Assembly: GCA_018818785.1 (NCBI GenBank)
Contig: JAHIRF010000002.1
Coordinates: 135,874-199,873, forward strand
Direction: 5' to 3'
DNA from: Thermoplasmatota archaeon
Lineage (GTDB): Archaea; Thermoplasmatota; Thermoplasmata; UBA10834
Length of the DNA: 64,000 nt
The notes under the pieces were generated by a model that was not told where the DNA came from, ran no database searches, and was given only the letters and a program-made list of their open reading frames with translations. Position numbers and translations under genes: made by a program. Shown in pieces: positions 1 to 56,280 of the stretch. The first letter of the stretch is position 1; each line of letters starts with the position of its first letter.

Positions 1-3000
1 AAATGACCTTATCAGATCAGATCTCGTCGACAGGGGTGCCATGTTCCATGAAGGGCAGATCACGCACAGATACGGGCACTGCTGGCGATGTAAGAGGCCG
101 ATCATATACAGGATAACCGAGCAATGGTTCCTGAAGGTCACCGACATAAAGGCGCAGCTCGAAGCTGCCAACGACCAGATCAAGTGGTATCCCGACTGGG
201 CCGGCTCATCCAGGGAGAAGGACTGGATAGCCAATGCAAGGGACTGGTGCATCAGCAGGCAGAGGTACTGGGGGACACCCGTTCCCATCTGGAGATGCGC
301 ATGCGGCAACGTCAAGGTGATCTCATCGATTGAGGAGCTCAAGTCTGGCCGAGGATACGTGGACGGTATGGATGTGCATCGCCCATGGATCGATAATATC
401 ACATTCGATTGCGAGAAGTGCGGGCAGACGATGACCAGGACACCAGATGTTCTGGATGTCTGGTTCGACGCGGGAGTCTGTTCTTGGGCGTCCTTGGGAT
501 ACCCAGCGAGCAAGGATGACTTCGATAAATGGTGGCCAAGCGAGTGGGTCACCGAGGCTCACGATCAGACCCGAGGCTGGTTCTACTCTCAGCTAGTGAC
601 GGGAGTTGTTGCATTCGGCAGATCACCATACAATTCCGTTCTCATGCACGGATGGGCACTTACGCCCCAGGGAGAGGCCATGTCTAAGAGCGAAGGCACG
701 GCAATAGACCCAATAGGTGCGGTGAACACACTTGGCGCCGACGCGCTGAGACTATATCTCCTGAAGGCCAACGCCCCTTGGGAGGACATTCTCTTCCAGA
801 CTGAGGGCGTCAAGGCGGCTAACAGGATCATAAACATCTTCTGGAACGTCTACAAATTCGCAGTCCTGTACATGTCGATAGATAAATTCGACGAATCACA
901 ATGGCGGACCCAATCTCTCAGAGAGACCTTCAGGCCAGAGGATCGATGGATGCTCTCCCGCATCGAGACGATGAAGAGGGACTTCACGCAGGCAATGGAG
1001 ATATATGAGGTGCATCGAGCGGCGAGGATACTCGAGGACTTCATAGTGACGGATCTCTCGCGATGGTACGTCAAGGTAGTGAGGGATAGACTCTGGAAGG
1101 AGGGGGATGACAGGGACAAGACCGCTGCGTTCAAAGTGCTGCACGAGGCGCTGTCAACATCTGCGACCATGCTCGCTCCAATAGCACCTCATGTTTGCGA
1201 AGCAATCTACACCAACCTCAACTCAAGGCCTGAGAGCGTGCACATGGTTCAATGGCCGACTCATGATCCAAGTTGGATCGATGAGGGTCTGGAAGAGGGC
1301 ATGGACCTCGTAAGGGAGATATCCGAGGTGATCGCCCGCATGCGCCAGGAGGCGAATGTGAACCTCCGATGGCCCTTGAAGCGCATCATCATCAAACCGC
1401 AGAATGATGATGTCGCTGATGCGCTGATACAGCTCAAGAATGTCATCCTGTCCCAGAACAACATCAAGGATATGCATGTCGTGCCGGTAGGTGAGGAATG
1501 GGACGAGATGGTCCTGAGCGTGGTTCCGAACCCCAACGCCATAGGGAAGGTCTATCGCCAGTGGTCGAGCAAGATCGCGGTTCTTCTCAAGAACAGGCCT
1601 GCGAAGTCGATCAAGGCCGGTATCGACAAGGGCGAGTACTCACTCGGTATCGAGGGCCAACTCGTCAAGATCCTTCCGAACATGGTGTCCTTCACTTCGA
1701 CGCTCCCACCAGATGTGGTCAGTGACGAGTTCTCCAAGGGTCTGTTCTATGTCGACCTCGAGGAGACCCCCGCGCTCGAAGCGGAGGGATTCGCGAGAGA
1801 GACCATCAGACGGATACAGCAGATGAGAAAGGACATGGGCCTCAACGTAGAGGAATTCATAAAGATAGAGATAGAGTGTTCGCGCAAGATCGAGAACGCC
1901 ATAGAGACCTGGAAGGACCATATCTCAAGGGAGACCAGGGCCAAACGGCTCGAGGTCGCCAATTCTCCAAGAGGGGAATACATCGTCGAGTGGAATGTCT
2001 CGAATGAACAACTCCTGATAGGCATAACCTCACTTAAGATGAAGAAGGCATTGGACGAGCTCGGAGCGATTCCTGGCATGACCGCCGAAAAGGCGCTCAA
2101 GATATTCGACCATGGCTACACTACGGTTGACGCCCTCAAGAACGCATCGATCGAAGACATAGCCTCGATCGATGGCATCACGAACGTCGATGGTAAGAAG
2201 ATCCATGACCATCTAAATGGGGTCGTCCACACAGAACCAGCTCCTGCAGCACCGCCAGCCCCGAGTGTCGCGCAGGCTACTACGGACGTAGCAGCTGCCC
2301 CTCCCCCGAACGAATTCATCGAGCGATTGAAAGCCGTTCCCGGCATGACAGCATCGCTGGCGGACGGATTGTACAGGGCAGGTTTCGTGTCCGAGGAATC
2401 CATCAGGAACGCTTCTGTGGACGATATGATGAAGGTGGACGGAATAAGTCTCGATGTCGCAACCCAGTTATTGGACGCATCCATGAACCCTTCCGTTTCT
2501 GACGGAGCGGCTCAAGTAGCACCCAAGAAGATAGAGCCAGGCGTGAGCGATCTCGAAAGGTCGTTTTCATACCTTGTCGAAGAGGACAGGCCCGAGACAT
2601 CGTACAGTCTGTTCGTAAGCGCGCTCAATAAGGGCATGAAGGGATATTGTGTCACGAGGAATTATCCCGCGAAGATACGCACCAAATTCGACCTCAAGGA
2701 TACGCCATTGGTTTGGCTCTCTAATGTAGGTCGCGAGAACGCCATCAGACCGAAGGACCTCGAGAAGCTGAGCGTCTCCCTGGAACAATTCCTCTCGCAA
2801 CCGGGCGGGGGAATCGTGCTCCTGGATGGTCTGGAGTATCTGATCACCAATAACAATTTCATAACCGTGTTGAGGCTGATACAATCCCTGAGGGATCAGG
2901 TCGCGATCAATCAATCCATACTCCTCATGGCTGTGAACAAGTCGACACTTGAGAGCCATCAGCTCAATCTGCTGGAGCGAGAGGTGGACTACACCATAAC

Positions 3001-3007
3001 TGGATGA
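1..3007 (+). CDS. ileS: Isoleucyl-tRNA synthetase, C-terminal ~2/3 (5' end lies outside the window). An in-frame C-terminal extension of about 330 aa follows: 2-4 helix-hairpin-helix motifs, a Pro/Ala-rich linker, then a DUF835-like domain (~2550..3007).
   Basis: Class I aaRS motifs are present (HCWRCKRPII, PDVLDVWFDAG, KMSKS as 'AMSKSEG'), followed by an anticodon-binding region. After about aa 665 come HhH-like repeats ('GAIPGMTAEKALKIFDHGYTTVDALKNASIEDIASIDGI', 'VPGMTASLADGLYRAGF...VDGISLDVATQLL'). The final ~150 aa aligns with two other proteins in this window (the 14495..15208 and 51324..53171 products). No stop codon interrupts the frame. Confidence 0.8.
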   Translation, partial: NDLIRSDLVDRGAMFHEGQITHRYGHCWRCKRPIIYRITEQWFLKVTDIKAQLEAANDQIKWYPDWAGSSREKDWIANARDWCISRQRYWGTPVPIWRCACGNVKVISSIEELKSGRGYVDGMDVHRPWIDNITFDCEKCGQTMTRTPDVLDVWFDAGVCSWASLGYPASKDDFDKWWPSEWVTEAHDQTRGWFYSQLVTGVVAFGRSPYNSVLMHGWALTPQGEAMSKSEGTAIDPIGAVNTLGADALRLYLLKANAPWEDILFQTEGVKAANRIINIFWNVYKFAVLYMSIDKFDESQWRTQSLRETFRPEDRWMLSRIETMKRDFTQAMEIYEVHRAARILEDFIVTDLSRWYVKVVRDRLWKEGDDRDKTAAFKVLHEALSTSATMLAPIAPHVCEAIYTNLNSRPESVHMVQWPTHDPSWIDEGLEEGMDLVREISEVIARMRQEANVNLRWPLKRIIIKPQNDDVADALIQLKNVILSQNNIKDMHVVPVGEEWDEMVLSVVPNPNAIGKVYRQWSSKIAVLLKNRPAKSIKAGIDKGEYSLGIEGQLVKILPNMVSFTSTLPPDVVSDEFSKGLFYVDLEETPALEAEGFARETIRRIQQMRKDMGLNVEEFIKIEIECSRKIENAIETWKDHISRETRAKRLEVANSPRGEYIVEWNVSNEQLLIGITSLKMKKALDELGAIPGMTAEKALKIFDHGYTTVDALKNASIEDIASIDGITNVDGKKIHDHLNGVVHTEPAPAAPPAPSVAQATTDVAAAPPPNEFIERLKAVPGMTASLADGLYRAGFVSEESIRNASVDDMMKVDGISLDVATQLLDASMNPSVSDGAAQVAPKKIEPGVSDLERSFSYLVEEDRPETSYSLFVSALNKGMKGYCVTRNYPAKIRTKFDLKDTPLVWLSNVGRENAIRPKDLEKLSVSLEQFLSQPGGGIVLLDGLEYLITNNNFITVLRLIQSLRDQVAINQSILLMAVNKSTLESHQLNLLEREVDYTITG

Positions 3008-3013
3008 GCCTGC

Positions 3014-3805
3014 TCAGGACAGCAGTTTGCAGACGATCTTCTGCAATCCGGGGACTGTGGGGAATCTTCCGACATCCTCGGGAGATACCCATTCATATCC
3101 TTGGTGTTCCCAATCTATCGATACCTGTGGATCGCGCACATCGAACAGGAATGAGTGTACGGTCCACACGACGTCGCCGTCTCTGAAGCTCTGAGGGTCG
3201 ATCGAGCGTGCCATGCGGGCGTTCTTCAAACTGACTTCCTCTTCGAGTTCACGTTTTGCGGCAACCTTCGGAGCCTCTCCCGGCTCTATGAACCCAGAAA
3301 CTCCGGCCCATAGTCCGCGATAGGAACCGACCTCGAGGCTCCTCTGCAACAGGAGTATCTTCCCTTTGTGCCTGAGAATGTTGGTGACGACCTGTTTCTC
3401 CTCCACATTCCTCAATTCGAGAGTCCCTGACTCTGCATCGACTATGGCCTTGTCCGATGTCCTCAAGAGGGATACGTCGATGCCATCTATCATCGGTATG
3501 CCCGCGATTATCGCACCCGTCGCCACAATAGGCTCCGCGATTGTATTGACTATAGCAGCTGGAGACGCATTCAGGATCTTGAGCTGATACATAGAATAGG
3601 AGCCGACCGTGCTGCCTTTACCATATGGGAATGCCAGGACGGTCTTCGAGACGCTCTTGCCCCTGCACTCGCATTCTGGATCGAGGATCCGGCCAGTCTT
3701 GGGGTCCACTCCTCCCAGGAATGAGAGTGGGATGCTGCTGGCCAGTACGGCGCCCTTTGCCATGCCGGCTCTGATGCACCTTCCCTTTATTATCGTGATA
3801 TCGCC
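3014..3805 (-). CDS. Phosphomevalonate dehydratase small subunit (aconitase X swivel domain, DUF126) fused to a C-terminal Nudix hydrolase domain. The start is probably non-ATG near 3800, because the long ORF to 3943 overlaps the upstream gene by 154 nt.
   Basis: 'IKGRCIRAGMAKGAVLASSIPLSFLGGVDPKTGRIL...GKSVSKTVLAFPYGKGSTVGSYSMY...PAAIVN' matches the AcnX small-subunit pattern. The C-terminal 'GLWAGVSGFIEPGEAPKVAAKRELEEEVSL' is a Nudix box (G-x5-E-x7-REuxEExGu). Confidence 0.7.
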   Translation of the reverse strand, partial: GDITIIKGRCIRAGMAKGAVLASSIPLSFLGGVDPKTGRILDPECECRGKSVSKTVLAFPYGKGSTVGSYSMYQLKILNASPAAIVNTIAEPIVATGAIIAGIPMIDGIDVSLLRTSDKAIVDAESGTLELRNVEEKQVVTNILRHKGKILLLQRSLEVGSYRGLWAGVSGFIEPGEAPKVAAKRELEEEVSLKNARMARSIDPQSFRDGDVVWTVHSFLFDVRDPQVSIDWEHQGYEWVSPEDVGRFPTVPGLQKIVCKLLS

Positions 3806-4959
3806 TCCAGGAGTTGGTCCGTGGTTCTGAATGTCGCCCTCTGTTTCCCAAGGGTCGGCAGATATACCATGGCCTTGCCTGAGTCTGAGGCCGTCCTCTT
3901 GAACATCTTCTCGATCGGCGCGACCACCATGCATGTATCGCATAGCACTTTGCCGAACCGCTTCAAGGTCTTGACTGCGTCAGGTGCGTTGGCATATGCT
4001 TTGCGCGAAGTGCAGAACCAGACGTTGCAGTCCTTTCGAGGGCGCTTTCCGTCCAGAGTACGAGCCATCCTGCGCAACTCCTGAGTGGAACAGTGGGGGC
4101 ATCCTATCGCCACCAGGTCCCATGAATCATCGCCAGAGAGAGAATCCTGGCATTCCTTCAATTCGGATTCAGGAAGCGAAACACATTCCTCTATCCTGCT
4201 TGTATCAATCTTCGATCTGACACCTGGTCTTCCGTAGAGATACATCGATACTGCACTCGTAGCGGCCATTGCGGCACCGAAGGATTTGTGTTCATCATTC
4301 GTCAAAGTAAGGTTAGTGATGTAGGGTATCCTGTTGCCAGCTATCCTGCCGACGACATAACCCAGCAACGGCACAGAGCCTTGAGGTATCGATTCCACAT
4401 CTATCTGCACGCTGGGAAGTCTGTTCTCGATGAGATGCAGCCCGTACTCGGCTGTCTTGCCGATGACGGCAGCTGCCAATGCAGAAGGCCCACCCTCTCT
4501 GTTGGTCAACGCCCCTAATACGGAGTTCGCGAATACCGTAGCGGACGACTCTGCCCACGCGATATGTTGTCCGGCCCGGGGTCGATTGCCTGCCAAATAG
4601 GGCGTGCAACTGTATAATGGTTCAAGGCCCATCGAAGCATATGCTCTGACGATCCTCATCTGCTTCTCCTTGAATCTCTCGTCGATACCCATCGATCGCC
4701 ATCTCAACACATCCATGCCCAAAGGGTTGACGGAAGCCCTCACTGAAACATGTGCCTCTGACGAGAAATCCTCGATGAACTTTATTCCCGCATCCCCGAC
4801 CGTCTTGAATGACGCTCCCGAGACCTGGGCCGATGATATCGGGACGAGTCTCTTCGCGCCATAGATATCACCTAGAGCGACCAGAAGCTCTATCGCCTTC
4901 TGTCTCCCGAACCCTTCCTCGCCTTTCAGAATCCGCTCTTCCTTCGAAGTGAGATGCAT
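3790..4959 (-). CDS. Phosphomevalonate dehydratase large subunit (aconitase X catalytic domain, DUF521)
   Basis: 389 aa. 'SSAQVSGASFKTVGDAGIKFIED...SVNPLGMD...YSCTPYL...AWAESSATVFANSVLGALTNREGGPSALAAAVIGKT' is typical of the AcnX/DUF521 family. It lies immediately upstream of, and on the same strand as, the DUF126 small subunit. Confidence 0.72.
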   Translation of the reverse strand: MHLTSKEERILKGEEGFGRQKAIELLVALGDIYGAKRLVPISSAQVSGASFKTVGDAGIKFIEDFSSEAHVSVRASVNPLGMDVLRWRSMGIDERFKEKQMRIVRAYASMGLEPLYSCTPYLAGNRPRAGQHIAWAESSATVFANSVLGALTNREGGPSALAAAVIGKTAEYGLHLIENRLPSVQIDVESIPQGSVPLLGYVVGRIAGNRIPYITNLTLTNDEHKSFGAAMAATSAVSMYLYGRPGVRSKIDTSRIEECVSLPESELKECQDSLSGDDSWDLVAIGCPHCSTQELRRMARTLDGKRPRKDCNVWFCTSRKAYANAPDAVKTLKRFGKVLCDTCMVVAPIEKMFKRTASDSGKAMVYLPTLGKQRATFRTTDQLLEAISR

Positions 4960-20538: not shown

Positions 20539-21696
20539 TTGATTTCTCCCCTGTCCCAACAAACTCCTTCATCTTCTTTCTCTTCCGAAGCCTCCCGGGA
20601 CCATGAAGATTATCGAATCTTTCAGTATGTCAACGACTTCGAGGAGGTCAGGCTCAAGCTAGTAAAGGGCAAATTAGACCTGAACCTGCCTGAGGACCGG
20701 GATCTATGCATAAAACTCTATCAGAAATGGGTCACAGACGACAATTACATGGTTCTGAGAAAAATCGACCCTCGTGGACCAATCGAGTATCAGGTATGCA
20801 AGGCTCGCAAGCGTGGAAACGATGTAGACGCATACAGGATCCATCGACAGCTTCGCATCATAAAGGACTCAATCGTCGAATATGCTCAAAGCAATCAACG
20901 CCTGAGGGCTACTAGGGCCGTCCATGTGACGGGCACGATTGACCCTAGATTGGTCGATAATGATCTCGAATACGCTTGGCAGTACCTTGGATACTGGTTC
21001 AATATGTTCCTGGCAAGCCTGAGAAAGCGATGTGTCAGAAACATCACGCTCAAGGAAGAGAAGGAAAAAGCCAAGGAACTCAAGATTCGAGTATATCGGT
21101 CCTGGGAGTCCCATGGATCGGGATGGCCCCATTTCCATGCTATTCTATGTTTTGAGGGATACTCCTGGACAATCTTCCAAGATTCAAAGTCGAGGTGGCG
21201 ACTCAATGACAAGGACACATTCCAAGATGCTTGGAGCTTCGGATGGATAGATGTAGTAGCCCTCACCCCTGGCACGACTAACAAGAATGTCGAGAAGGTC
21301 GTATCGTATGTCAGCAAGTATGTGGGCAAAGGGGCCACTGAGATGGATTATCGTCATGTGGAATCCTGGCCTCGAAAGAGACTCCTGACCGAATCGCTTT
21401 TATGGTACTTTGGCAAAAGGTCATATTCGATCAGTCGTGGGCTATTGGAGGGACATGACCACCCTAACGACTTGAAAAAACGTATAAGCACAATTCAAAC
21501 GAACATAGAAGGAGAATGCGTCCCAGAGCTTGAAATTGTGTGGGAATTCATTGGAATGGTGCGCGGAAAAGACACCGAATTGGATGGCTACACCTGGGTC
21601 AAGACGTATACGGATCCACCTGATTGGCTAGACCTATGCTGGAAACCTTGTCGTAGCTACGTGGGAACATGTTGGATGAATACTTGGGGGAGTTGA
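20539..21696 (+). CDS. rep: Rolling-circle replication initiator (HUH superfamily Rep)
   Basis: Motif 1-like 'AVHVTGTI', HUH motif 'WPHFHAILCF', Tyr motif 'VSYVSKYVGK'. First gene after the tRNA att site. Confidence 0.6.
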   Translation: MISPLSQQTPSSSFSSEASRDHEDYRIFQYVNDFEEVRLKLVKGKLDLNLPEDRDLCIKLYQKWVTDDNYMVLRKIDPRGPIEYQVCKARKRGNDVDAYRIHRQLRIIKDSIVEYAQSNQRLRATRAVHVTGTIDPRLVDNDLEYAWQYLGYWFNMFLASLRKRCVRNITLKEEKEKAKELKIRVYRSWESHGSGWPHFHAILCFEGYSWTIFQDSKSRWRLNDKDTFQDAWSFGWIDVVALTPGTTNKNVEKVVSYVSKYVGKGATEMDYRHVESWPRKRLLTESLLWYFGKRSYSISRGLLEGHDHPNDLKKRISTIQTNIEGECVPELEIVWEFIGMVRGKDTELDGYTWVKTYTDPPDWLDLCWKPCRSYVGTCWMNTWGS

Positions 21697-21697
21697 G

Positions 21698-21907
21698 ATG
21701 TTCGTTTGCGACGGATGTCAACATGAATTCGATTTTCTAATGATTATCTGTGGCCTAGCGTTGTGCAATGAATGTCTTAAACCGTACGATGACGCATTAT
21801 CGGAATGTCAATCGCATAAAGAATTGGACATTGTGGGTCGACGGATACGTTCGGATATTCTGTCTTTTCGAAAAGGGGAGAGAGTCAATAAGTGTTTTAG
21901 AGAGTAG
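21698..21907 (+). CDS. Small zinc-finger protein (element cargo)
   Basis: 69 aa, 'CDGCQHEF...CGLALCNEC' Cys4-type pattern. Confidence 0.35.
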   Translation: MFVCDGCQHEFDFLMIICGLALCNECLKPYDDALSECQSHKELDIVGRRIRSDILSFRKGERVNKCFRE

Positions 21908-21926
21908 TGGTCGGAGGTCGTCAGTC

Positions 21927-22787
21927 TCATGATTCGTTATGCTTTTCGCAAGTGATAGTTCTTGTATTGATTTCCTTGAGCAGTTCTTTGACTCCAGGCA
22001 ATTTCGTCAGAGAGCGTTGCCATCGGTCGAATGATTCAGTATAGAATTCAATGACAAAACCTTCGGAGAAGACAAGCAAAGTACGGTCTGGACGATTGAG
22101 GAATGCGAGTTCTAGATTCTTAGGCTTGATCTCGTCTTCGAATTTCCACTCGTACTTTTGATTCTTGCTTACCCTTTTGTCCTTGCGGTTGATGAATTCG
22201 TCGATTTCGAAGGTGAGATTATCTGGATCTTCTTGATTCAGTAGCGGCATTATTGCGTCTCTCAATGGTCCGCTTTTCAGAACCATGGCTTTTCTATGCT
22301 TCGGAGGGTGGATGAATCGAGATAAGGATTTCTTGAAGTAGAGATTCATTCTTTCCATGTCTTTCTTGTTATTGACTGATGTGATCTTTGGCGGAGGAGA
22401 ACCCGGCCTCGAAAGGAGAATCATGAAAGAGTTCAGAAACTCTTCAATCGTGATGAGTCTGTAATATTTATGAGCTTTTTCTCGGTCTGGTTCTCTTTCG
22501 TCAGTGAGGTGGGGTTCGAATCCAAGCGACTTCTGAACCAGACCCAGATGGACAGATGGGTCAATACTTGCGTGTGCCTTCACAATTGTTTCGTATTCGT
22601 TGATTTGTTTTGATACAATTTTGAGAATTGCGATTCCTTCAGCTGAAATCGTCATCTTCTTCTTGATGTGCTTCTTGCTCATCCTTTCGGAATAATATTG
22701 CTTTGATATAAAGCGTGAGAGGTATGGATCGAATGCTGTTGCTTGTGAGGATAGAATAATGCCTTTAGGCTGCCGAAACCGAATCAA
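21927..22787 (-). CDS. Hypothetical protein (element cargo), AT-rich codon usage
   Basis: 286-aa ORF, K/E-rich, no motif recognized. Confidence 0.35.
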   Translation of the reverse strand: MIRFRQPKGIILSSQATAFDPYLSRFISKQYYSERMSKKHIKKKMTISAEGIAILKIVSKQINEYETIVKAHASIDPSVHLGLVQKSLGFEPHLTDEREPDREKAHKYYRLITIEEFLNSFMILLSRPGSPPPKITSVNNKKDMERMNLYFKKSLSRFIHPPKHRKAMVLKSGPLRDAIMPLLNQEDPDNLTFEIDEFINRKDKRVSKNQKYEWKFEDEIKPKNLELAFLNRPDRTLLVFSEGFVIEFYTESFDRWQRSLTKLPGVKELLKEINTRTITCEKHNES

Positions 22788-22977
22788 GAGGGGGTATGAG
22801 CGCAGTTGCGTTAGAGGCGTTCTAGAGGGGGCTTGGAAGAGGTCAGATGAAGAGGGAGGGAACAGAAGAAGACTGGTAATGAGAGTTGGCTCTTAGCCTG
22901 GTGGCAGGACTGAATGGGGATTCCCCGGAAGCCTTTATGTAGCGAGTTGACGGTCAGAGAAGACAAGGGGTGGAATT

Positions 22978-23268
22978 GTGAATAGCAGTGAACCCGATTC
23001 AGATCAGGGAGAACCAACCTGGTTCAAGACATGGTGGGAGAGGGAGGAGAAACGTCGCTCGAGACGCGAGCTGACTGAAGGCGGTTTTGGCATATTCACC
23101 ATCGGTCTCGGAGGCATCGCAGTCGGTCTGGGATTGGCCGCACTTGAGGACGCCAATACTGTGGCGGTTGCCCAAGTCCTCTTGGTCAGCATGTTCGCCA
23201 TGATTGTGGGGATGGTGATAGCTATGGCCAGTCTGTTCGGTTACAGGCGGAAAAGGGGTCCCAAATGA
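22978..23268 (+). CDS. Small membrane protein (element cargo)
   Basis: 96 aa, 2 TM after a charged N-terminus. Confidence 0.35.
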   Translation: MNSSEPDSDQGEPTWFKTWWEREEKRRSRRELTEGGFGIFTIGLGGIAVGLGLAALEDANTVAVAQVLLVSMFAMIVGMVIAMASLFGYRRKRGPK

Positions 23269-23435
23269 CGAATTTTCTGGAGGGACTTGTTGGCTTATCT
23301 GTTGGTTTGGTGCTTTCCGCGATTATAGCAAATGCTCTATGGACGATACAGCCAATTGGTACAGTGCTGATTGGTGTCATAGATGTCGTGGCCGTCGTCG
23401 CATACGTCAAGGGATTGGCGGGTGGCAGAGGATAG
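23265..23435 (+). CDS. 56-aa two-TM peptide. Its ATG overlaps the stop of the 22978..23268 gene (ATGA).
   Basis: Direct translation gives 'MTNFLEGLVGLSVGLVLSAIIANALWTIQPIGTVLIGVIDVVAVVAYVKGLAGGRG'. Below the ORF-track length threshold. Confidence 0.3.
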   Translation: MTNFLEGLVGLSVGLVLSAIIANALWTIQPIGTVLIGVIDVVAVVAYVKGLAGGRG

Positions 23436-23493
23436 AGTCCGGTTCTAATCTGACTGGGAGAAGACCATAGAGTGGAAATGTGCCACTCGAGCA

Positions 23494-24045
23494 TTAGTAG
23501 AGTTTGCCTCGCTCATATCTGAACGAAGCGTGCTCATGCTTCTTGTCTCGTAACACTGATCTGAACAGGCTAGGGTACTCGATTTCCTCAAGAGGTAGGC
23601 AATAGACTTCGTCTGGCATTGACGGCTCTCCCCCTAGGCCCAGAACCATAAACACAGTCTCTGGACATACTCCCTTCTGAAAGCTGCGATACGCTTCCAG
23701 GCGGTCCTGTTCACATATCTTGAACTTGTCATCATAGAGTCTGGCTCTCCATTTCGCTTCGACCCAGAACTTGTCCCTGCTCCTTCGGTCCTTTATGTAG
23801 AGGTCCGGCTTTCTGCTGCCTTCGGGATCATCCCTCTGCTTGATTTCGAAATCGCGATTCGGAAACATGTTTTCCACGAACGCTTCGAAATCCTTGCCTT
23901 TCGCATACTGGACAGGATCATAGTTTCGCTTCAATTGAACCAATCCCGGACATTGATGACAAGGAGACCAGATAGTTGTTTCGGAAGGTCCCGCCTGGGT
24001 CTCCAGGCTTTTTTGCTCAGAAAAGCCCAGAGAGAGGAGACACAA
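23494..24045 (-). CDS. PD-(D/E)xK nuclease-fold protein (restriction-endonuclease-like / NERD-like)
   Basis: 'RKPDLYIKD...KFWVEAKWR' gives D...(D)-x(n)-E-x-K spacing. 183 aa. Confidence 0.45.
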   Translation of the reverse strand: MCLLSLGFSEQKSLETQAGPSETTIWSPCHQCPGLVQLKRNYDPVQYAKGKDFEAFVENMFPNRDFEIKQRDDPEGSRKPDLYIKDRRSRDKFWVEAKWRARLYDDKFKICEQDRLEAYRSFQKGVCPETVFMVLGLGGEPSMPDEVYCLPLEEIEYPSLFRSVLRDKKHEHASFRYERGKLY

Positions 24046-24133
24046 TCAGGATTACGTTGTCTGCGTACCTCAATCCAAAAAGCATAATTCTCATTGATTA
24101 CCAGCCAAGCACCCGTATTCTGAGGGGAGATGC

Positions 24134-25159
24134 TTGGCTTATGGTGGCAAAGGAACTAATCGGAGTATGACAATTAGGTGCCTATATGTTGGTTTGCCAA
24201 CAGGGAGGTTGACAGATACGGAGAGCGAATCGGAGACTAGAAGTCACAACAAGAAGGTTGATAGCATCAACAAATCAGGCTATGGTTTCCAGAGAAAGAT
24301 TGCACTTGAGATCTCTAGCACCGAGAAATGGGATGTTGAGATTGAGAAGCCCCTCGTAAGATTCGAAGAAAGGTCGGTGGAAGAGGTCAAGGTTGACATC
24401 TTAGCTCGCTCCAGACGGAAGTTCAGCGATATGCCTAGAGCAGTTTCTGTGATTGAATGCAAGAGACATGATCCCAAGTATTCAGAATGGCTCTTCTTCT
24501 CTCGAGGCAGCAATCTTGGAGAGATTGAAGGTCGAGAGAAATTCCCATCAGTTTGGTGTCACCTCACCGGTGGCAGTTATTCCTTCGATAACAAACATCA
24601 CAAGACGGGTAGAATGGGGATGTACGAGGGTTATTTCCCAAGTCTGGCTGAATGGGCTGATATCAAATACAGTGATTCTTTTGGGGTTCCGACGAGGCGC
24701 GATGGTACGATTGGTGCCGCAGACTCAGGAGTGATTCAGCATGCTGCTAACCAGGTGGCTCGGGGAGTGCTCGGCGCTGTTCATAGCCTCCACGAATACC
24801 GAAACTCGCGGAGGAAAGAGCGATTTCTTCCTCTTACGGGGAATCATCTAGTCCTTCCAGTCCTTGTCACAACTGCTCCAATTTACGTGTGCCATGTTGA
24901 TGATGCAGCCACGGACTTACTGCAGGGCAGTATTCCTCCCGACGGTCTAGAGACTGAATCGAAGAAGTGTCTGCTATTCAGATATTCGCTCCCTATAGGT
25001 CTTTGGTTCCCACCTGATACGCTCGCAGGAGACGGATTGCCGGACCTGACGTCACTCTCCGTATGGGTAGTCAGTTCATCATTCTGCAAAGAGTTCTTTT
25101 CGCTCGTTGACAAAGACGCTGCTCATTGGCAAGAAATGGCTCCGATTCAGGGACAGTGA
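24134..25159 (+). CDS. Putative PD-(D/E)xK-like nuclease / hypothetical protein (element cargo)
   Basis: 'VKVDILARSRRKFSDMPRAVSVIECKRHD' is a candidate D...E-x-K motif. 341 aa. Transcribed divergently from the 23494..24045 gene. Confidence 0.35.
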   Translation: MAYGGKGTNRSMTIRCLYVGLPTGRLTDTESESETRSHNKKVDSINKSGYGFQRKIALEISSTEKWDVEIEKPLVRFEERSVEEVKVDILARSRRKFSDMPRAVSVIECKRHDPKYSEWLFFSRGSNLGEIEGREKFPSVWCHLTGGSYSFDNKHHKTGRMGMYEGYFPSLAEWADIKYSDSFGVPTRRDGTIGAADSGVIQHAANQVARGVLGAVHSLHEYRNSRRKERFLPLTGNHLVLPVLVTTAPIYVCHVDDAATDLLQGSIPPDGLETESKKCLLFRYSLPIGLWFPPDTLAGDGLPDLTSLSVWVVSSSFCKEFFSLVDKDAAHWQEMAPIQGQ

Positions 25160-25171
25160 TACAGGAAGAAT

Positions 25172-26500
25172 TCATTCTTCTGAAATGATGTCTCTGAAGT
25201 CCTCGAATGTCTCTGGATAGAAGACCTCGATGTCACACGGGATTTCAGAGAATTCCTTTAATGACAGAATATTGTCGACGACGGATGCTCCAACGCACTG
25301 GGGGATATTCGTTACAAGGTATGCGCTGCTAACGTGAATATCGGCCTTGTCATAGGTCCTCCAATGATTGGAAAGCTGGTTGAGATCTTCACGGATTTGC
25401 GATTCCAGGGTTCGTCCAGGTGAGTCGAGATGGTGAACCTTAGATTCGACGATTCCAATTTCGTTCTCATCCTCCATTTGAAATACCGCGTCCTTCTCGG
25501 TGTCATCGGCCAGTCCTTCCACATATACACCAGGTGCCCAGCTGCGGCCGCTTTCTCGGAGGCTCCAGTGTACCGTGGTGCCCAGCAAACCGTCGCGGGC
25601 ATCCAGCAATTTGGCAAGTGGCGATTTTGGGTAGTAGAATGTACCCACAGCCATTTCGGACTTGCAGACTGGGCAGGTCGAGACCGGAGGGTCCTGGCTA
25701 GCTACCGCAAAGTACGATTGAGGATGTTTCCTGCATTGAGTGCACCAAACTAGCGATGTCGCCGGGGACAAGAGACAGAAGCGGTCGGCAAGCTGTTTTA
25801 GTGTGCGGTGATATTCTTCATAGCTCTGTCTGGAGGACACAAGGAGATTTTCTAGGTGCTTCCGGCCGAATTGCAGCGCACCATATTTCCATATTGAAAA
25901 AATGCTAGCTAGGGCAGGAACCACCAAATCTCCGGCTCTGCTCGTGATTGTGTTTACGACTTTTCTTAGCCCATCTTCACTGTACATCTGAATGATTCTG
26001 TTTGTTACCTCTCTGGTGACGATCTCCGTCCTGATCTCTTCCTCTCGTTCAGTTTCAAGTGATGGAAGCTTCGCGGTCGTTTCCTGAAACTGCTCTTCAA
26101 AACCCGCGAGAATATCAGGTAGGATTGGAAGAAACCTATTCAAGGCGTCGTATACATGGACTCGGAGCTCGGCGTCAGACTTGCTTGCTTCGTAGGCCAA
26201 TGGATCGTGGTCACGGAAGGGCATGCTTTCATCATAAAAGATGGGGAGAACAACTCCCTTGAATGGCATGTAGTCATGCCTGTGGCGCCAGAGAAACTTG
26301 CGAATGTCCTCCTCCGTCGCGACCGCGTCAAAAAGCTGTGTAAGTTCTGGGACCGATTGAATGGTCTTCAACGAATTCAGCTGGTCTGAATCACACTTCA
26401 GCTTCCTTTTGGAGCCGTCCCTGAGGGTGACCGTTTCAAGAATGTTCATTAGGTCATGGTCATCGATTTTCACAGCCCTCGGATGGGGTCTACATGCCAT
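25172..26500 (-). CDS. Large hypothetical protein with an internal zinc ribbon (element cargo)
   Basis: 442 aa, 'CTQCRKHPQ...CPVCKSE' zinc ribbon, no other recognizable domain. Confidence 0.35.
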   Translation of the reverse strand: MACRPHPRAVKIDDHDLMNILETVTLRDGSKRKLKCDSDQLNSLKTIQSVPELTQLFDAVATEEDIRKFLWRHRHDYMPFKGVVLPIFYDESMPFRDHDPLAYEASKSDAELRVHVYDALNRFLPILPDILAGFEEQFQETTAKLPSLETEREEEIRTEIVTREVTNRIIQMYSEDGLRKVVNTITSRAGDLVVPALASIFSIWKYGALQFGRKHLENLLVSSRQSYEEYHRTLKQLADRFCLLSPATSLVWCTQCRKHPQSYFAVASQDPPVSTCPVCKSEMAVGTFYYPKSPLAKLLDARDGLLGTTVHWSLRESGRSWAPGVYVEGLADDTEKDAVFQMEDENEIGIVESKVHHLDSPGRTLESQIREDLNQLSNHWRTYDKADIHVSSAYLVTNIPQCVGASVVDNILSLKEFSEIPCDIEVFYPETFEDFRDIISEE

Positions 26501-26682
26501 AAACCTTCAGGTCCGGTATTAGGTCTACTACAGACTATAGACTGTAGAAAGTAGTCAGTTATCTTACTGGCCTTGGGGCGAACCGCAAGATACAAATGCA
26601 CGAAGTCTGTTAAGATTTATGGATCGTGTAACCTGGAATTTTGGCTTTGGTCTGATTCCTTTCGCGGCCTAGTGGCCCTCTG

Positions 26683-27987
26683 TTGTATTTAATTTTGATA
26701 TTGTTGATCCAGCCAGCACGACTAGGTTGCGAAAGATTGATCAACAAAGGAGACGAAGAATCGTCGTGGGCGGGCAGTTGGCGCTTGAGAGAAAACGTTA
26801 ACTCCCTAGATAGTGATGTAACGAGCGGTCCTGAGGATGGGACAACTCAGGACCGCAAGGGATACAATGAACCCGGTCGTGAACCCAGATCGGGGCAGGG
26901 GAGACGGAAGAGCTCGACGCATAGAAGAAGGAAGCCAGGAAGGGAGCGTGGTCCGAGGTCAAATGGCCCTTATCCGTTCCTGACTGAGCTTAAGGTCTAT
27001 CTGAAGGACGTGGAGCATGCACATGCGGAATCCACACTGACAGACATGGCAAGGAAGCTGCGGCATATCCATGATGTTCTCAAGGAGCTGAAATCGAAGG
27101 GACTTGTACAGACTACAAGTCCCCGAAAGATGGGAGAACAAGAGATCTTTGCATTTGTTGCATGGATGAACGCCAAGGATGGCCTGCGTTCAAGGCCTTT
27201 GGGCGAAGCCACTCAGAAGAAGACGCTTCACCAGTTGAAGAGCTTCCTGGCGCATCTCGACAATGGCGTAATCGACAGAATGCTGAAGAAGAAGCAGCTG
27301 AGGATGCCGCGAGAACGGAATGTTCCTCGTGAATCGTTTGAGGCGGATGAGCTTGCCCAGATTATGACGAGTCTCAAAGAGGCGGCTGCCAAGGGGTCAA
27401 TGAATGCCTTCGGCGTGTTTGGCCATGCTCTGTTCTGCGGATATGCGGGCACGAGACTCAAGGAGGTCAGGCTAGCTCAGAGAGGCGACTACTTGGCCAA
27501 GTTCTATGAATTGACCGTGCTTCATCCAAAGGGCGAGAAGTCCTGGGGAGATCCACGAATAGCACAAATCTGCCCTCCTGGGAGGCCGTTCGCCGACGAT
27601 TTCATGGCTATGCGCGACCGAGAGCTAAGGAAGTCCGACATCCTTGACAGCAAGGCGATCCCATTGGTGCCTAGAGTCATAGGAGGCAGAGTCGAACGCT
27701 GGCCAGATTCGGTCCTTCATAACGTGAAGTGCGAGGTCGAGCGTGACCGTATGCTGCAGTTCGACTTTCGCAAGCTGAGAAGAACTTACGGCCAGAACGC
27801 TTTAGATGCCGGTACGCCAATGGACTTCGTGAGTGGAGCTCTAGGTCACGCACACGTGGCGACGACTCAAAGGTCCTACGTCCGTCTGAAAAGCAGTAGA
27901 GTCTTTGCGGAGATAGACCGTGCCTATGCGAATGCGTCTGTAAATTCAATCCCCGTTGATTGCGATAAGGCCAGGTGTTCGAAATGA
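26683..27987 (+). CDS. int: Tyrosine recombinase / phage-type integrase. The true start is probably internal, near 27046; the first ~120 codons of the ORF are low-complexity.
   Basis: Catalytic region 'FRKLRRTYGQNALDAGTPMDFVSGALGHAHVATTQRSYVRL' shows the R...HxxR...Y pattern. Confidence 0.72.
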   Translation: MYLILILLIQPARLGCERLINKGDEESSWAGSWRLRENVNSLDSDVTSGPEDGTTQDRKGYNEPGREPRSGQGRRKSSTHRRRKPGRERGPRSNGPYPFLTELKVYLKDVEHAHAESTLTDMARKLRHIHDVLKELKSKGLVQTTSPRKMGEQEIFAFVAWMNAKDGLRSRPLGEATQKKTLHQLKSFLAHLDNGVIDRMLKKKQLRMPRERNVPRESFEADELAQIMTSLKEAAAKGSMNAFGVFGHALFCGYAGTRLKEVRLAQRGDYLAKFYELTVLHPKGEKSWGDPRIAQICPPGRPFADDFMAMRDRELRKSDILDSKAIPLVPRVIGGRVERWPDSVLHNVKCEVERDRMLQFDFRKLRRTYGQNALDAGTPMDFVSGALGHAHVATTQRSYVRLKSSRVFAEIDRAYANASVNSIPVDCDKARCSK

Positions 27988-28367
27988 GGAGCCACAGGGT
28001 CCACCATCCATGAGAAAAGGACATAAGGGCGGACTACCAGGGAAAGATTCTTGTGCTGAAGAGAACGATTGCAGCAAGGGAGTCGACTTGAATTCTGATT
28101 CAGAGAGACCCGTCAAGGCCAATGCTCCTGTCCGAATTCCCCGGATACTGCTCATGATTGGCAGTATTGGGGTGATCCGAGGGGTTCTAGCATGCATCAG
28201 GCGTGTAGGAAGAAGAAAAGGAGTTTAGCTCCGGGCCAATTCCCCGCTGATTGAATCCGAGTCCTGACATACTGGCTCCTCAGGGATTCAAATCCCCTTC
28301 AGTTTGAATCCTGATGTAAGGGGCCGTAGACACGGAATAGGAATCTTCAAGCCATGAACAGCGATTT

Positions 28368-28868
28368 ATGGTTGAGGAAATGGCGCTTAGATTGAGCAGA
28401 TCGATTAGACAATTCGGCCTGATAGCTGCAGTGGTGGGCGTAGTGGCCATTCTTGCATTTGCAGCCTATGTTCTTGTCTTCTCGACCATTACGGTGTCCG
28501 GCGTGGTGGACCACAAGACGATTGTTGGAATAAGGGACGACTGTCAGTACACCCTTGTGGTCATCGTTCCCTGGGGCATACAGGTCCAGGATTCAGCCCT
28601 TCAGAGTCTCTTCTCTGATAAGGATGTCAATTTGACGATTGACGAGTCATTGGAGTGGGATATCAGGTCTTGCGGATATGCAGAGATACGCTACCTAGCT
28701 AGCGTGAGATTGTCAACGGGAGACTCGGTCAATGATATTGAACCAGGAGGAACTCTCGCCTACTTCGTTAAGAGAGATGACTTCAACAAACTAGGATTCA
28801 TTGATAACCACACAATCAGTGTAGAGAAGTTCGAATTCGCCACCATCAGAGATGTGGACAAGGGTTGA
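28368..28868 (+). CDS. N-terminally membrane-anchored protein (element cargo)
   Basis: 166 aa, with one TM ('FGLIAAVVGVVAILAFAAYVLVF') followed by a soluble domain. Confidence 0.35.
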   Translation: MVEEMALRLSRSIRQFGLIAAVVGVVAILAFAAYVLVFSTITVSGVVDHKTIVGIRDDCQYTLVVIVPWGIQVQDSALQSLFSDKDVNLTIDESLEWDIRSCGYAEIRYLASVRLSTGDSVNDIEPGGTLAYFVKRDDFNKLGFIDNHTISVEKFEFATIRDVDKG

Positions 28869-28925
28869 ACGCCTTCTGATGTGCAGTTACGATGAATCCT
28901 GTGTAGAATGATGGAAGGGGTTTGG

Positions 28926-29055
28926 TGAGGGGCAACGATCCCCTCCTAAAATGACCAAAGCGTTTGCTATCTCTCAACGCGTCTCCTCGGCGAAGGTGCC
29001 CTAACAAGGGCATTTTGGACTATGAGCCAGTCATCTTCGTGGTCCATCATCCCAA
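28926..29055 (+). repeat. Copy 1 of a ~130-nt imperfect direct repeat. It contains two hairpins and ends in a degenerate copy of the tRNA 3' end.
   Basis: 'gaggggcaacgatcccctc' and 'gccctaacaagggc' palindromes. About 85% identical to 29692..29830. Confidence 0.6.
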
Positions 29056-29141
29056 TGAGTCGATGAGAAGAAGCCATAAGAGCGGAATGCCTGAGTAAAC
29101 TAGATAACAATCCATGTCCATCAACATATAGAGGACTGGCG

Positions 29142-29534
29142 ATGAGGTGTCCGCATTGTGCATTTGAGAGTCCACCAGATAACAATTACTGCGGCCGCTG
29201 TGGAGGAAAACTGGGAGCGATGAGTCCTAACTCAAACGTGCCTGAATGGTTGCGTGACGAAGGGAGAGGTGTTGGAGGAAGCCTATATCCTGAGGCGTCC
29301 TTCATCGACCCTGCTTCGTGGAGCATTGCCCAGAAGAAGAGATGGACAGCATTGGGTGGCATTGCGATGGCATTCATGGTTACATTCATTCTGGCGATAG
29401 CGTTCACGACCACTGACGCATTCACACGAGACCTCTTCTTAATCATGGCCCTTGTCCTTGCGTTCGTATTTGGGTCGATGATTGCTGCCCGCTGCTACAG
29501 AATGTCTATCCGCAAGAAGGAACTCGAGCAATGA
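29142..29534 (+). CDS. Zinc-ribbon + 2-TM small protein
   Basis: 'CPHCAFESPPDNNYCGRCGG' N-terminal ribbon, C-terminal hydrophobic helices, 130 aa. Confidence 0.45.
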   Translation: MRCPHCAFESPPDNNYCGRCGGKLGAMSPNSNVPEWLRDEGRGVGGSLYPEASFIDPASWSIAQKKRWTALGGIAMAFMVTFILAIAFTTTDAFTRDLFLIMALVLAFVFGSMIAARCYRMSIRKKELEQ

Positions 29535-29691
29535 ACCGTCACTGGTGCAAAATGTATGCATGAACCGATTCGGAGAACTCGGATGCGAACATCAATTTTA
29601 TGAGATTCATTGATTGCTATGATGATTCATTGCGATTAGATCGTGGGTGTACCTGTTGAAGGGTCATGAGCTGAGGATGTTGAAGAGGTTT

Positions 29692-29830
29692 AGTGAAGGG
29701 TAATTAACCCCTCTAAAAAGAACAACGGGTTTGCTACCTCTCAATCCGCTTCCTCGGCGAAGATGCCCTAACAAGGGCATTTCGGGGTGTGAGCCAGTCA
29801 TCTTGATGGTCCCTAATCCCACAGGGTCCA
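29692..29830 (+). repeat. Copy 2 of the ~130-nt repeat. It ends with the exact 16-nt tRNA-Ala 3' end (attR, 29815..29830).
   Basis: 'AATCCCACAGGGTCCA' is identical to 20487..20502. Confidence 0.7.
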
Positions 29831-29880
29831 CCAATTCTGAGAAAAGGCCAAAGGGGGGCAAATAGAGGCTTCCCCAGCAA

Positions 29881-30123
29881 ATGATATATGTTCACGATTC
29901 AGTGGCAATCATCATGCAATGCATGCAATGCGGTGCCTCCAATCCGGAAAATGCCAAATCCTGTCAACTTTGCATGAACTCTTTGGAGATAGAAGATTAC
30001 AAAGATCCAGCATTCTACGCAGAGTCACCTTCTTGGAACTCATATGGCAACATCATACTCATACTGGGGCTGCTGTTCACGGCATTCTTCTTGGTGTCGA
30101 TGCTCCTTGTATTCTTCTTTTGA
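29881..30123 (+). CDS. Zinc-ribbon + TM small protein
   Basis: 'CMQCGASNPENAKSCQLC' followed by one TM. 80 aa. Confidence 0.4.
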   Translation: MIYVHDSVAIIMQCMQCGASNPENAKSCQLCMNSLEIEDYKDPAFYAESPSWNSYGNIILILGLLFTAFFLVSMLLVFFF

Positions 30124-30223
30124 CGGAAGAAGAGAATGAGTTCGAGCTGAGTTTTCGCATGTCTTCCAAAGATGCTGGGGTAAGAAAATGTGATAGAGGC
30201 GGAAGAGCTGACTGTGGAAATGG

Positions 30224-31270: not shown

Positions 31271-31371
31271 CCATTTAAATCATGCTTTTGCGCTATATTA
31301 ATATCACTCGGATAGACAAGGATTGTAGCTGGAATGCAGATTCGCATATACCGTGGGAAAGGCCATAGGAC

Positions 31372-31836
31372 CTATTTCTTCTGAGGCGCGCCACAAAACG
31401 GGCACTTGCTTGACGTGACCTCTATCAAGGCGTTGCAGTATGGGCATGGATACTTGACAATCTCCCTGACCACTTCCTTCACGATCGTTGGCTGTGAAGA
31501 GTGAGTAGTCTCTGCACTCTGGCTTGCCATTCCGCTCTGAATAGCAGTTATCCACGGTTCAGGCGTATCGACTTGGAATTCATGGCGGGGAATCCCTGAC
31601 ATCTCTGTAGTGTCAACTACTACCACAAGAATCGGCTTCTGAACCATCCCAAGGATCTTGTTCGCCCTCTGGACATTCATTGACTTAATTGCCTTGAGCG
31701 GAATGGATTGGGTAACATAGTCCTTCCGATTTACCAGACCGCTTCGAGTGACGAACTTGAGCTGCCCGTTCTCCAGCTCAAGAACGCCTGGATTGCCCCT
31801 ATACCAAGCTGGCGATGAATAGGACAGCACACTCAC
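31372..31836 (-). CDS. PH/GRAM-like domain protein with a C-terminal zinc ribbon
   Basis: 'VLELENGQLKFVTRSG' bacterial-PH-like N-terminus, 'CPYCNALIEVTSSKCPFCGA' ribbon. Confidence 0.4.
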   Translation of the reverse strand: MSVLSYSSPAWYRGNPGVLELENGQLKFVTRSGLVNRKDYVTQSIPLKAIKSMNVQRANKILGMVQKPILVVVVDTTEMSGIPRHEFQVDTPEPWITAIQSGMASQSAETTHSSQPTIVKEVVREIVKYPCPYCNALIEVTSSKCPFCGAPQKK

Positions 31837-56213: not shown

Positions 56214-56280
56214 CTTGGTCAGCCAGCAATATGACGGAAGGGTTGATACCAATAAAAGGTTTCTTGAGAAGCCGATATCC

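Follow-up and report, generated by a model that had tools for sequence, protein, structure and literature searches.

A phosphomevalonate dehydratase small subunit fused to a Nudix hydrolase domain in Thermoplasmata

Gene organization of the locus

The window analysed here, a 64,000-nucleotide (nt) stretch of contig JAHIRF010000002.1 from a Thermoplasmatota archaeon, carries near its beginning a minus-strand gene in which the small subunit of phosphomevalonate dehydratase (PMDh), an enzyme of the AcnX family, continues directly into a Nudix hydrolase domain. In the open reading frame (ORF) listing this gene appears as a long ORF of 309 amino acids (aa) at 3014..3943 (-), to which all residue numbers refer unless stated otherwise, and the AcnX large-subunit gene (3790..4959) lies directly upstream of it on the same strand. 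Pfam assigned residues 73-152 to AcnX_swivel (PF01989; E 2e-29, 101.7 bits with a cutoff of 27) and residues 189-305 to NUDIX (PF00293; E 3.3e-18, 66.4 bits with a cutoff of 21.1). The NCBIfam DUF126 model covers residues 51-178; the DUF126 protein equivalog NF003046, aligned along model positions 3-130 of 132, gave 156.6 bits, slightly under its cutoff of 163. In the AlphaFold2 (AF2) model of the long ORF, which has a mean predicted local distance difference test score (pLDDT) of 81.7 and a predicted template modelling score (pTM) of 0.71, residues 49-309 are mostly of high confidence and pLDDT is below 50 across residues 1-46. The features of the gene pair are given below with the evidence for each.

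3014..3793, minus strand: PMDh small subunit-Nudix fusion, the proposed real gene, 259 aa, from ATA 3793..3791 to TGA 3016..3014 (translation; TK1248 homology, residues 4-129, from the ATA codon; start comparison over 59 loci)
3794..3943, minus strand: residues 1-50, by which the long ORF reaches back into the large-subunit gene, probably untranslated (low pLDDT; in-frame stops in relatives)
3410..3793, minus strand: AcnX swivel domain, residues 51-178, the small subunit proper (PF01989; 7cnr_B; Foldseek)
3596..3622, minus strand: catalytic loop GKGSTVGSY with Ser111, Thr112 and Val113 (TkAcnX residue roles; conservation)
3389..3409, minus strand: linker RNVEEKQ, residues 179-185, where the AF2 model is unbroken and confident
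3017..3388, minus strand: Nudix domain, residues 186-309 (PF00293; fold matches)
3227..3295, minus strand: Nudix box G217-x5-E223-x7-R231-E232-L-E-E235-E236-V-S-L, string GFIEPGEAPKVAAKRELEEEVSL (sequence)
3104..3115, minus strand: DWEH motif, residues 277-280, hallmark of the Nudix subfamily (alignment)
3790..4959, minus strand: AcnX large subunit (PMDh-L), 389 aa (PF04412, E 1.8e-133)

An initial annotation, made from the window sequence, had proposed the fusion and a complete Nudix box. Both are borne out, the fusion by the presence of PF01989 and PF00293 in one ORF, an architecture seen again in hundreds of independent assemblies, the box by its fit to GX5EX7REUXEEXGU save for a Ser in place of the last Gly. 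The same annotation had named a frameshift or stop between the domains, or a lack of conservation of the Nudix residues, as the observations that would speak against the fusion. In the window ORF, neither a stop nor a frameshift lies between the swivel and the Nudix domain, and the Nudix residues are conserved, as described below.

The dehydratase half retains the catalytic residues of characterised enzymes

The swivel part matched the small subunit of Thermococcus kodakarensis AcnX (TkAcnX), TK1248 (chain 7cnr_B), over its whole length (E 5.5e-39, query 3-128 to chain 4-129, about 57-58% identity), and Foldseek superposed its AlphaFold model on the TK1248 subunit with a template modelling (TM) score of 0.95 at 58% identity. 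In the TkAcnX small subunit Ser62 serves as the general base, Thr63 and Val64 contact the substrate, and Leu27 is also among the residues assigned to catalysis and substrate contact (PMC8184944). The Ser62-Thr63-Val64 triad corresponds here to S111, T112 and V113 in the loop GKGSTVGSY, and Leu27 to L76 in SFLGG. The large subunit matched 7cnr_A with an E value of 6e-91; compared with 7CNR and the published residue roles (PMC8184944), it keeps the cluster ligands Cys110, Cys283 and Cys342 as well as the substrate residues Glu129, Ser130, Ser131, Lys361, Tyr365 and Asn79, and it carries two substitutions, Asn53 to Thr and Val49 to Ala. The TK1248 match, the conserved catalytic residues and the intact large subunit together identify the gene pair, at the level of sequence, as encoding the AcnX type IIb enzyme of the archaeal mevalonate pathway, phosphomevalonate dehydratase, predicted to convert mevalonate 5-phosphate to trans-anhydromevalonate 5-phosphate.

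The window protein thus shares with T. kodakarensis TK1248 (PDB 7CNR/7CNS) and Archaeoglobus fulgidus AF0055 (2HI6) the same swivel, the catalytic Ser-Thr-Val loop with its Leu, and an adjoining large-subunit gene. The solved and characterised small subunits, however, stop at about residue 130, whereas the window protein adds a 7-residue linker and a 124-residue Nudix domain; when the characterised small subunits TK1248 and AF0055 were aligned to it, as the initial annotation had suggested, both ended where the Nudix domain begins. A further difference is the start codon, which in the clade of the window is most likely ATA and not ATG. To our knowledge, all characterised phosphomevalonate dehydratases are plain two-subunit enzymes. 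In another fusion involving the swivel it is joined to its own large domain, whereas the swivel of the window is a separate subunit joined to an unrelated hydrolase.

The fusion recurs across Thermoplasmata

A search with residues 49-309 returned 1101 relatives, and each of the best 120 (120/120) carries both PF01989 and PF00293, at 57-97% identity. When a Methanomassiliicoccus version of the protein was used as query, 845 relatives were obtained, largely overlapping the first set, and the best 120 were again all fused (120/120); the names returned by this second search were those of metagenome-assembled genomes (MAGs) only. According to their titles, the fusion-bearing records come from Thermoplasmata, Thermoplasmatota and Methanomassiliicoccales MAGs. 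The fusion is also present in the closed chromosomes CP070732.1, CP070748.1, OY970070.1, OW818644.1 and OY760646.1, and it occurs as a single ORF in independent assemblies of NCBI, ENA, JGI and Logan. When a Nudix pattern was scanned against genomes at species level, each species being represented once, at least 584 of them had a relative of the Nudix domain. Among the best 80 species-level loci, 70 have a swivel-Nudix gene, 65 of these 70 with the AcnX large-subunit gene directly upstream, and at 60 of the 80 a convergent isoleucyl-tRNA synthetase (IleRS) gene lies downstream.

Conservation is equally strong in both halves, mean identity to the window protein over 111 fused proteins being 64% for the swivel and 64% for the Nudix domain. 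On the dehydratase side T112 and V113 are found in 111/111 of these proteins and S111 and L76 in 110/111 each. On the Nudix side G217, E223, R231, E232, E235 and E236 are each present in 111/111 and the DWEH residues in 110-111/111; the last Gly of the box, replaced by Ser in the window, is Gly in 87/111. That the fusion is an artefact of assembly or sequencing joining two genes is next to impossible, as the same ORF recurs in independent assemblies and in closed chromosomes; the spurious part of the long ORF is confined to its first 50 codons. One apparent three-part fusion, a 739-aa ORF at locus L082, was rejected: Pfam gives swivel and Nudix alone, and the extension is probably just an open frame. 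We therefore hold with great confidence that the window encodes a two-domain protein, a genuine PMDh small subunit joined to a Nudix domain with an intact box, and that this fusion is old and clade-wide. Judged by these comparisons, it has been under selection in Thermoplasmata, including Methanomassiliicoccales, and the Nudix tail is a specific feature of this clade.

Annotation pipelines already label such proteins, either as 'DUF126 protein' or as 'predicted aconitase with swiveling domain / MutT', so that the architecture was already visible in databases. A literature search for PMDh, anhydromevalonate, AcnX or DUF126 together with Nudix found no paper linking them. What is new here is a variant of a known enzyme joined to a Nudix subfamily for which we found no characterised member.

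Translation probably begins at an ATA that overlaps the stop of the large-subunit gene

The initial annotation had pointed to a 154-nt overlap between the fusion and the large-subunit gene and had taken it to imply a non-ATG start or translational coupling. The two ORFs, 3014..3943 and 3790..4959, do overlap by 154 nt, but the genes themselves most likely share only 4 nt; the remainder is an artefact of ORF extension, residues 1-50 being most likely untranslated. The junction, which reads GGAGG-N10-ATAA, contains two features.

3790..3793, minus strand: ATAA junction, the ATA start (3793..3791) lying over the large-subunit TAA (3792..3790) (sequence)
3804..3808, minus strand: GGAGG, a Shine-Dalgarno-like motif 10 nt upstream of the ATA (sequence)

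We compared this junction over the 59 loci, among L008-L087, in which both genes are complete. A codon in the small-subunit frame is placed one base before the large-subunit stop, giving a 4-nt overlap, in 59/59 loci. The codon itself is ATG in 19, GTG in 11, TTG in 1, CTG in 8, ATA in 19 and CTA in 1, so that 31 loci have ATG/GTG/TTG and 28 have ATA/CTG/CTA at this position. Nearly every locus of the ATA/CTG clade keeps GGAGG (L027 has GGGGG); the motif also lies inside the large-subunit coding sequence, and its conservation has two possible causes. Several ATA-clade species combine an in-frame stop 91-145 nt ahead of the junction with the absence of any ATG, GTG or TTG for the first 47-152 nt after it. 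Moreover, the residues right after the ATA are conserved in relatives and align with TK1248, homology to the solved subunits beginning at residue 51. The invariant junction geometry, the conserved post-ATA residues and the missing canonical starts all point to the ATA overlapping the TAA as the most likely start, giving a protein of 259 aa, and the suggestion of a non-ATG start with translational coupling gains support from the same geometry in 59/59 loci.

Other ways of beginning the protein were considered and set aside. A start at an upstream ATG, with the full 154-nt overlap, was rejected on the pLDDT below 50, the late onset of homology and the in-frame stops of relatives; the upstream ATGs arise incidentally from the codons for Thr-Cys342 of the large subunit (aCA TGc). 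The gene caller used on the source contig starts at M61 (3763), giving 249 aa, and this start is unlikely because it removes strand beta1 (IKGRCIRAG), which is conserved in all relatives and aligned with TK1248. A -1 frameshift producing a large-small-Nudix polyprotein was likewise set aside, since no slippery heptamer was seen before the stop and the ATG-type relatives have a plain ATGA overlap. The ATA start would be reached by termination-reinitiation at the large-subunit stop, a mechanism that would tie the amount of the fusion protein to that of the large subunit.

The Nudix domain falls into a distinct archaeal subfamily

Foldseek matched the Nudix domain to many Nudix structures with a probability of 1.00 and TM scores up to 0.81 (target-normalised). 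Its closest matches in sequence and fold are NudG (2RRK), NudI (6DT3), BdRppH (3EES), Methanosarcina mazei 3GRN and Ap4A hydrolases, with NudB (2O1C) and NudJ (3DKU) as weaker matches, and a profile of the domain searched against the PDB found NudI with an E value of 8.6e-14. Identity to these small MutT-like hydrolases is 20-30%, and every NCBIfam equivalog score is well below its cutoff (bits against cutoff: NudG 46.4/156, NudI 32.9/95, NudB 27.1/103, MutT 27.5/148). The MutT-like enzymes (NudI, NudG, BdRppH, 3GRN, NudB and NudJ) have the same fold and a complete Nudix box, and 3GRN also shares with the window domain the C-terminal pattern YEH..Y.WV...ETLP. The window domain differs from them in its fusion to the swivel and in its own invariant motifs, RS, WAxVSG[FY]xE (with Ser before the box Gly), DWEH and TVPxL, which mark an archaeal 'DWEH' subfamily. 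In an alignment (A2) of 20 sequences from four architectures, 21 columns are invariant; the D, E and H of DWEH are invariant and its W nearly so, and the invariant subfamily residues include R201, S202, S216, E220, R254, H263, D277, E279 and H280. We also looked in the window protein for four specificity motifs outside the box, namely LLTxR[SA]x3Rx3Gx3FPGG for CoA, a Pro about 16 residues after the box for ADP-ribose, SQPWPFPxS for NADH and a Tyr about 18 residues after the box for Ap4A, and found none of them. By these sequence criteria the domain represents a distinct archaeal subfamily, of which we found no characterised member.

In a full-library search with the Nudix domain alone, the DWEH subfamily at 40-57% identity takes several forms, namely stand-alone proteins of about 135 aa, fusions to IF-2B, HAD, CinA and alpha/beta hydrolase domains, and tandem repeats. 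Fusions of an N-terminal Nudix domain to the IF-2B family make up 29 of the top 150 cluster representatives (including P0136, P0144, P0145 and P0165), and one of them, L073 6007..7368, is thaumarchaeal. An IF-2B-like partner passes the eIF-2B_rel model and reaches 201 bits with the model for ribose-1,5-bisphosphate isomerase. These fusions resemble the window protein in joining a Nudix domain of the same subfamily (40-49% identity, hallmark motifs) to an enzyme that acts on a phosphate ester, and differ from it in that the Nudix domain is N-terminal and the partner is a homologue of a sugar-phosphate isomerase. In a neighbour-joining tree of the Nudix domains the swivel and decayed-swivel forms fall mostly apart from the IF-2B-fused ones; at about 125 residues the alignment is too short to tell one fusion origin from several. 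The CinA-Nudix fusions include one from a Chloroflexota MAG (L064). Genes beside stand-alone members encode a PIN-ATPase-KH protein, Trm5, a Rad51-like protein, a PfkB kinase, D-aminoacyl-tRNA deacylase and ribosomal protein L19e, and these neighbourhoods show no consistent theme. In three Thermoplasmatales-like MAGs (L078 4895..6195, L080 2056..3067, L061 837..3034) a stand-alone Nudix gene follows a PIN-PilT ATPase-KH gene with a 4-nt overlap; L078 and L080 are 90% identical to each other, and in both UppS follows 35 nt after the Nudix gene.

The only isoprenoid-pathway Nudix enzyme named in the initial annotation was type-1 isopentenyl diphosphate (IPP) isomerase (IDI). The Nudix fold beside an isoprenoid-pathway enzyme and a weak match to NF002995 (E 5e-4), the type-1 IPP isomerase model, would agree with a divergent member of that family, and we regard such an identity as very improbable. 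The NF002995 score reaches only 19.7 bits, the cutoff being 127. At the position just ahead of the Nudix-box Gly, occupied by the catalytic Cys67 in E. coli IDI, the window domain has Ser216, invariant in 111/111 fused proteins and in all architectures. The REx2EE hydrolase box is fully kept in the window domain and degenerate in IDI, and the 19 and 30 PDB sequence matches listed and the top 50 fold matches contain no IDI. Type-1 IPP isomerase thus has in common with the window domain the Nudix fold and the isoprenoid link, and differs from it at the Cys position and in the hydrolase box. It was rejected on model score, Ser216, the kept box and the structure matches, and as a functional lead it fails with the score of 19.7 against 127 and the Ser for Cys. 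Nor is it the only Nudix enzyme linked to isoprenoids, since NudB, NudF, NudI and NudJ also act on IPP and dimethylallyl diphosphate (DMAPP).

The Nudix domain persists where the dehydratase is lost from the locus

About 36 cluster representatives of about 245 aa, labelled 'NUDIX pyrophosphatase' by NCBI and coming from Candidatus Sysuiplasma and other Thermoplasmata MAGs, carry at the N terminus a domain of about 110 residues whose start and end are swivel-like. The hhalign comparison of this domain with the swivel family gave a probability of 98.1% and an E value of 7e-14 over the whole domain, and the GKGSTVGSY loop is absent from it. These proteins have the same two-domain layout and the same Nudix subfamily as the window protein, and one lies at the orthologous syntenic position, but they have lost the catalytic loop and there is no AcnX large subunit at the locus; they are derived relatives, predicted to be inactive as PMDh. 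At the syntenic position (L005-L007, 8001..8729) the decayed-swivel gene sits in the gene order of the window, with H+-PPase, Rpb7, Spt4, DUF359, S24e, the gene itself, a convergent IleRS-DUF835 gene and FEN1, and no AcnX large-subunit gene or remnant was found within 16.7 kb. In a second lineage the loop is partly decayed and the large subunit is missing at the locus, and a third decayed-swivel lineage has a different gene context. A decayed swivel with an intact Nudix domain is seen at L005-L007 and also at L091 and L092. Three divergent swivel-Nudix proteins (P0143, P0151 and P0153) keep a Pfam swivel match with the loop replaced (e.g. PYIKDPETCY), and from their sequences they look like intermediate stages of swivel decay.

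Throughout the decayed-swivel and stand-alone forms the Nudix box residues stay invariant. As the Nudix domain and the swivel scaffold are kept where the dehydratase has been lost at the locus, the Nudix function would be independent of the PMDh reaction, and the pattern of conservation argues that the domain has a selectable function of its own. This bears on the view that the Nudix domain is non-catalytic and instead helps PMDh to dimerise, stabilises it or senses a ligand for it. Dimers are common among Nudix proteins, the AF2 model has a defined domain arrangement (pTM 0.71), and the swivel scaffold and the Nudix domain stay joined after swivel catalysis is lost, all of which would suit such a role. 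E232, E235, E236, R231 and E223, however, are found in 111/111 fused proteins and again where the swivel has decayed or the domain stands alone, which is the signature of an active hydrolase, and we consider a purely non-catalytic role quite unlikely.

A possible role in hydrolysis of C5 prenyl diphosphates

From the intact box and its conservation we infer that the Nudix domain hydrolyses a small phosphoanhydride in an Mg2+-dependent reaction and that its task is tied to the metabolism of isoprenoid precursors. The initial annotation had suggested a phosphate or diphosphate of the pathway as its substrate, which may hold. In the archaeal pathway the enzyme after PMDh is a UbiD-type decarboxylase, anhydromevalonate-phosphate decarboxylase, which needs prenylated flavin mononucleotide (FMN), and the last enzyme is isopentenyl phosphate kinase, which phosphorylates isopentenyl phosphate (IP). 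The window contains a gene related to this cofactor, 47 kb away and outside the locus.

50755..51318, plus strand: UbiX family flavin prenyltransferase, 187 aa (NF004685, 224 bits, cutoff 188; TIGR00421, 214 bits, cutoff 108.9)

With UbiX present, the organism would have the prenylated-FMN system of the archaeal mevalonate decarboxylase; the precomputed Pfam lists of the window contain no UbiD-type gene. In E. coli, NudB, NudF, NudI and NudJ are reported to convert IPP and DMAPP to IP and dimethylallyl phosphate (DMAP), and DMAP is the UbiX substrate for prenylated FMN (PMC6058358, PMC12359138). The class-wide persistence of the fusion, these E. coli activities and the UbiX gene in the window led us to DMAPP/IPP, hydrolysed to DMAP/IP, as the substrate we put forward, tentatively. 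The Nudix domain would remove the terminal phosphate, turning DMAPP into DMAP and/or IPP into IP. DMAP would then pass to UbiX (50755..51318) for synthesis of prenylated FMN, the cofactor of anhydromevalonate-phosphate decarboxylase, and IP would pass to isopentenyl phosphate kinase, so that the Nudix domain would supply the cofactor precursor, set the IP/IPP balance, or both. The cis-prenyltransferase gene UppS that lies 35 nt after a stand-alone subfamily Nudix gene in one Thermoplasmatales-like lineage offers a further isoprenoid context. The complete picture, in which a dedicated C5 prenyl-diphosphate phosphohydrolase feeds UbiX and controls IP/IPP while its translation starts at ATA/CTG by termination-reinitiation, is doubtful as a whole.

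Several observations weigh against this assignment. No characterised Nudix protein of the DWEH subfamily was found, and NudI, NudB and NudJ are only 20-28% identical to the window domain, which scores under every NCBIfam cutoff. NudI, NudB and NudJ are, moreover, mainly nucleotide or pterin hydrolases whose activity on prenyl diphosphates is promiscuous. Subfamily members at 40-48% identity are fused to IF-2B-like isomerases, HAD phosphatases and CinA, and stand-alone members occur in Thaumarchaeota, Bathyarchaeota and Aenigmatarchaeota without isoprenoid neighbours; contexts so varied speak for a substrate of more general kind, or for different substrates in different clades. Most of the invariant residues are charged or polar, a character not obviously suited to a hydrophobic C5 tail. 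If the decayed-swivel lineages are without prenylated FMN, DMAP supply leaves their retention of the Nudix domain unexplained. The UppS adjacency, finally, is effectively that of a single lineage, being found in two closely related MAGs.

The same homology can be read as nucleotide house-cleaning, with pyrimidine (d)NTPs as for NudI and NudG, dinucleoside polyphosphates, or ADP-ribose and NAD as substrates, and with the link to the PMDh small subunit serving co-expression or stability alone. The best matches of the window domain, NudI, NudG (CTP pyrophosphohydrolase), BdRppH and the Ap4A hydrolases, act on nucleotides; subfamily members occur in unrelated contexts, including the CinA and IF-2B-like fusions that would fit nucleotide or ribose-phosphate salvage; and the Nudix domain is kept after PMDh loss. 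All these matches are, however, under their family cutoffs, and the ADP-ribose, NADH, Ap4A and CoA motifs are absent. In addition, a fusion kept in many lineages, with 64% identity in both halves and a scaffold that outlives its catalysis, implies a functional or structural tie between the two domains. Nucleotide house-cleaning is possible, and on sequence homology alone it would be about equally likely as DMAPP/IPP hydrolysis.

We also considered whether the Nudix domain makes the substrate of its fusion partner, converting mevalonate 5-diphosphate to mevalonate 5-phosphate in the window protein and phosphoribosyl pyrophosphate (PRPP) to ribose 1,5-bisphosphate (R15P) in the IF-2B fusions. 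An IF-2B-like partner, at 201 bits on the ribose-1,5-bisphosphate isomerase model and passing eIF-2B_rel, offers a parallel between the fusions. For Thaumarchaea, formation of R15P from PRPP by a Nudix enzyme has been proposed (PMC7300363), and one of the Nudix-IF2B fusions, L073, is thaumarchaeal. The HAD-Nudix fusions would fit a two-step dephosphorylation, and the polar and charged invariant residues would suit substrates of this kind. On the other side, Thermoplasmata are not known to have a source of mevalonate 5-diphosphate (a phosphomevalonate kinase), and the Nudix domain is retained where the PMDh large subunit is gone, so that we regard this proposal as unlikely.

Other features of the window

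Downstream of the fusion and convergent to it, IleRS (41..3007, +) has a long C-terminal extension with HHH_5 and DUF835 domains; the full gene in L001 (11953..16077) encodes 1374 aa, and IleRS-DUF835 is convergent to the swivel-Nudix gene in L001, L003 and L005. A second DUF835 protein (51324..53171, -, 615 aa), with a weak C1_2 zinc-finger match, lies between UbiX and LeuRS (53331..56438), so that two DUF835 genes adjoin class I aminoacyl-tRNA synthetases in the window. Elsewhere, the region at about 20539..32720 holds about a dozen called genes without a Pfam match. The run opens with a 385-aa ORF (20539..21696) that weakly matches REP_ORF2-G2P, a rolling-circle replication protein, and may be an integrated mobile element or provirus.

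Implications for isoprenoid supply in archaea

The archaeal mevalonate pathway has phosphomevalonate dehydratase as its signature enzyme, and the clade-wide fusion of the small subunit to an active-looking Nudix domain points to an unrecognised step or control point in isoprenoid precursor supply, including that of the methanogenic Methanomassiliicoccales. Were DMAPP/IPP hydrolysis true, it would explain the archaeal source of DMAP for the prenylated-FMN cofactor, and a product of the pathway would supply the cofactor of its own decarboxylase in a closed loop. A single assay of the domain would annotate many proteins, the Nudix-IF-2B fusions among them, across at least 584 species-level genomes. 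The decayed-swivel relatives suggest that a catalytic subunit can persist as a scaffold for its fusion partner, and they mark lineages whose mevalonate route has probably changed. The conserved ATAA/CTGA overlaps, in turn, provide a test case for termination-reinitiation at non-canonical codons in archaea; if the proposed start is true, they would represent natural non-canonical initiation maintained across many archaeal species.

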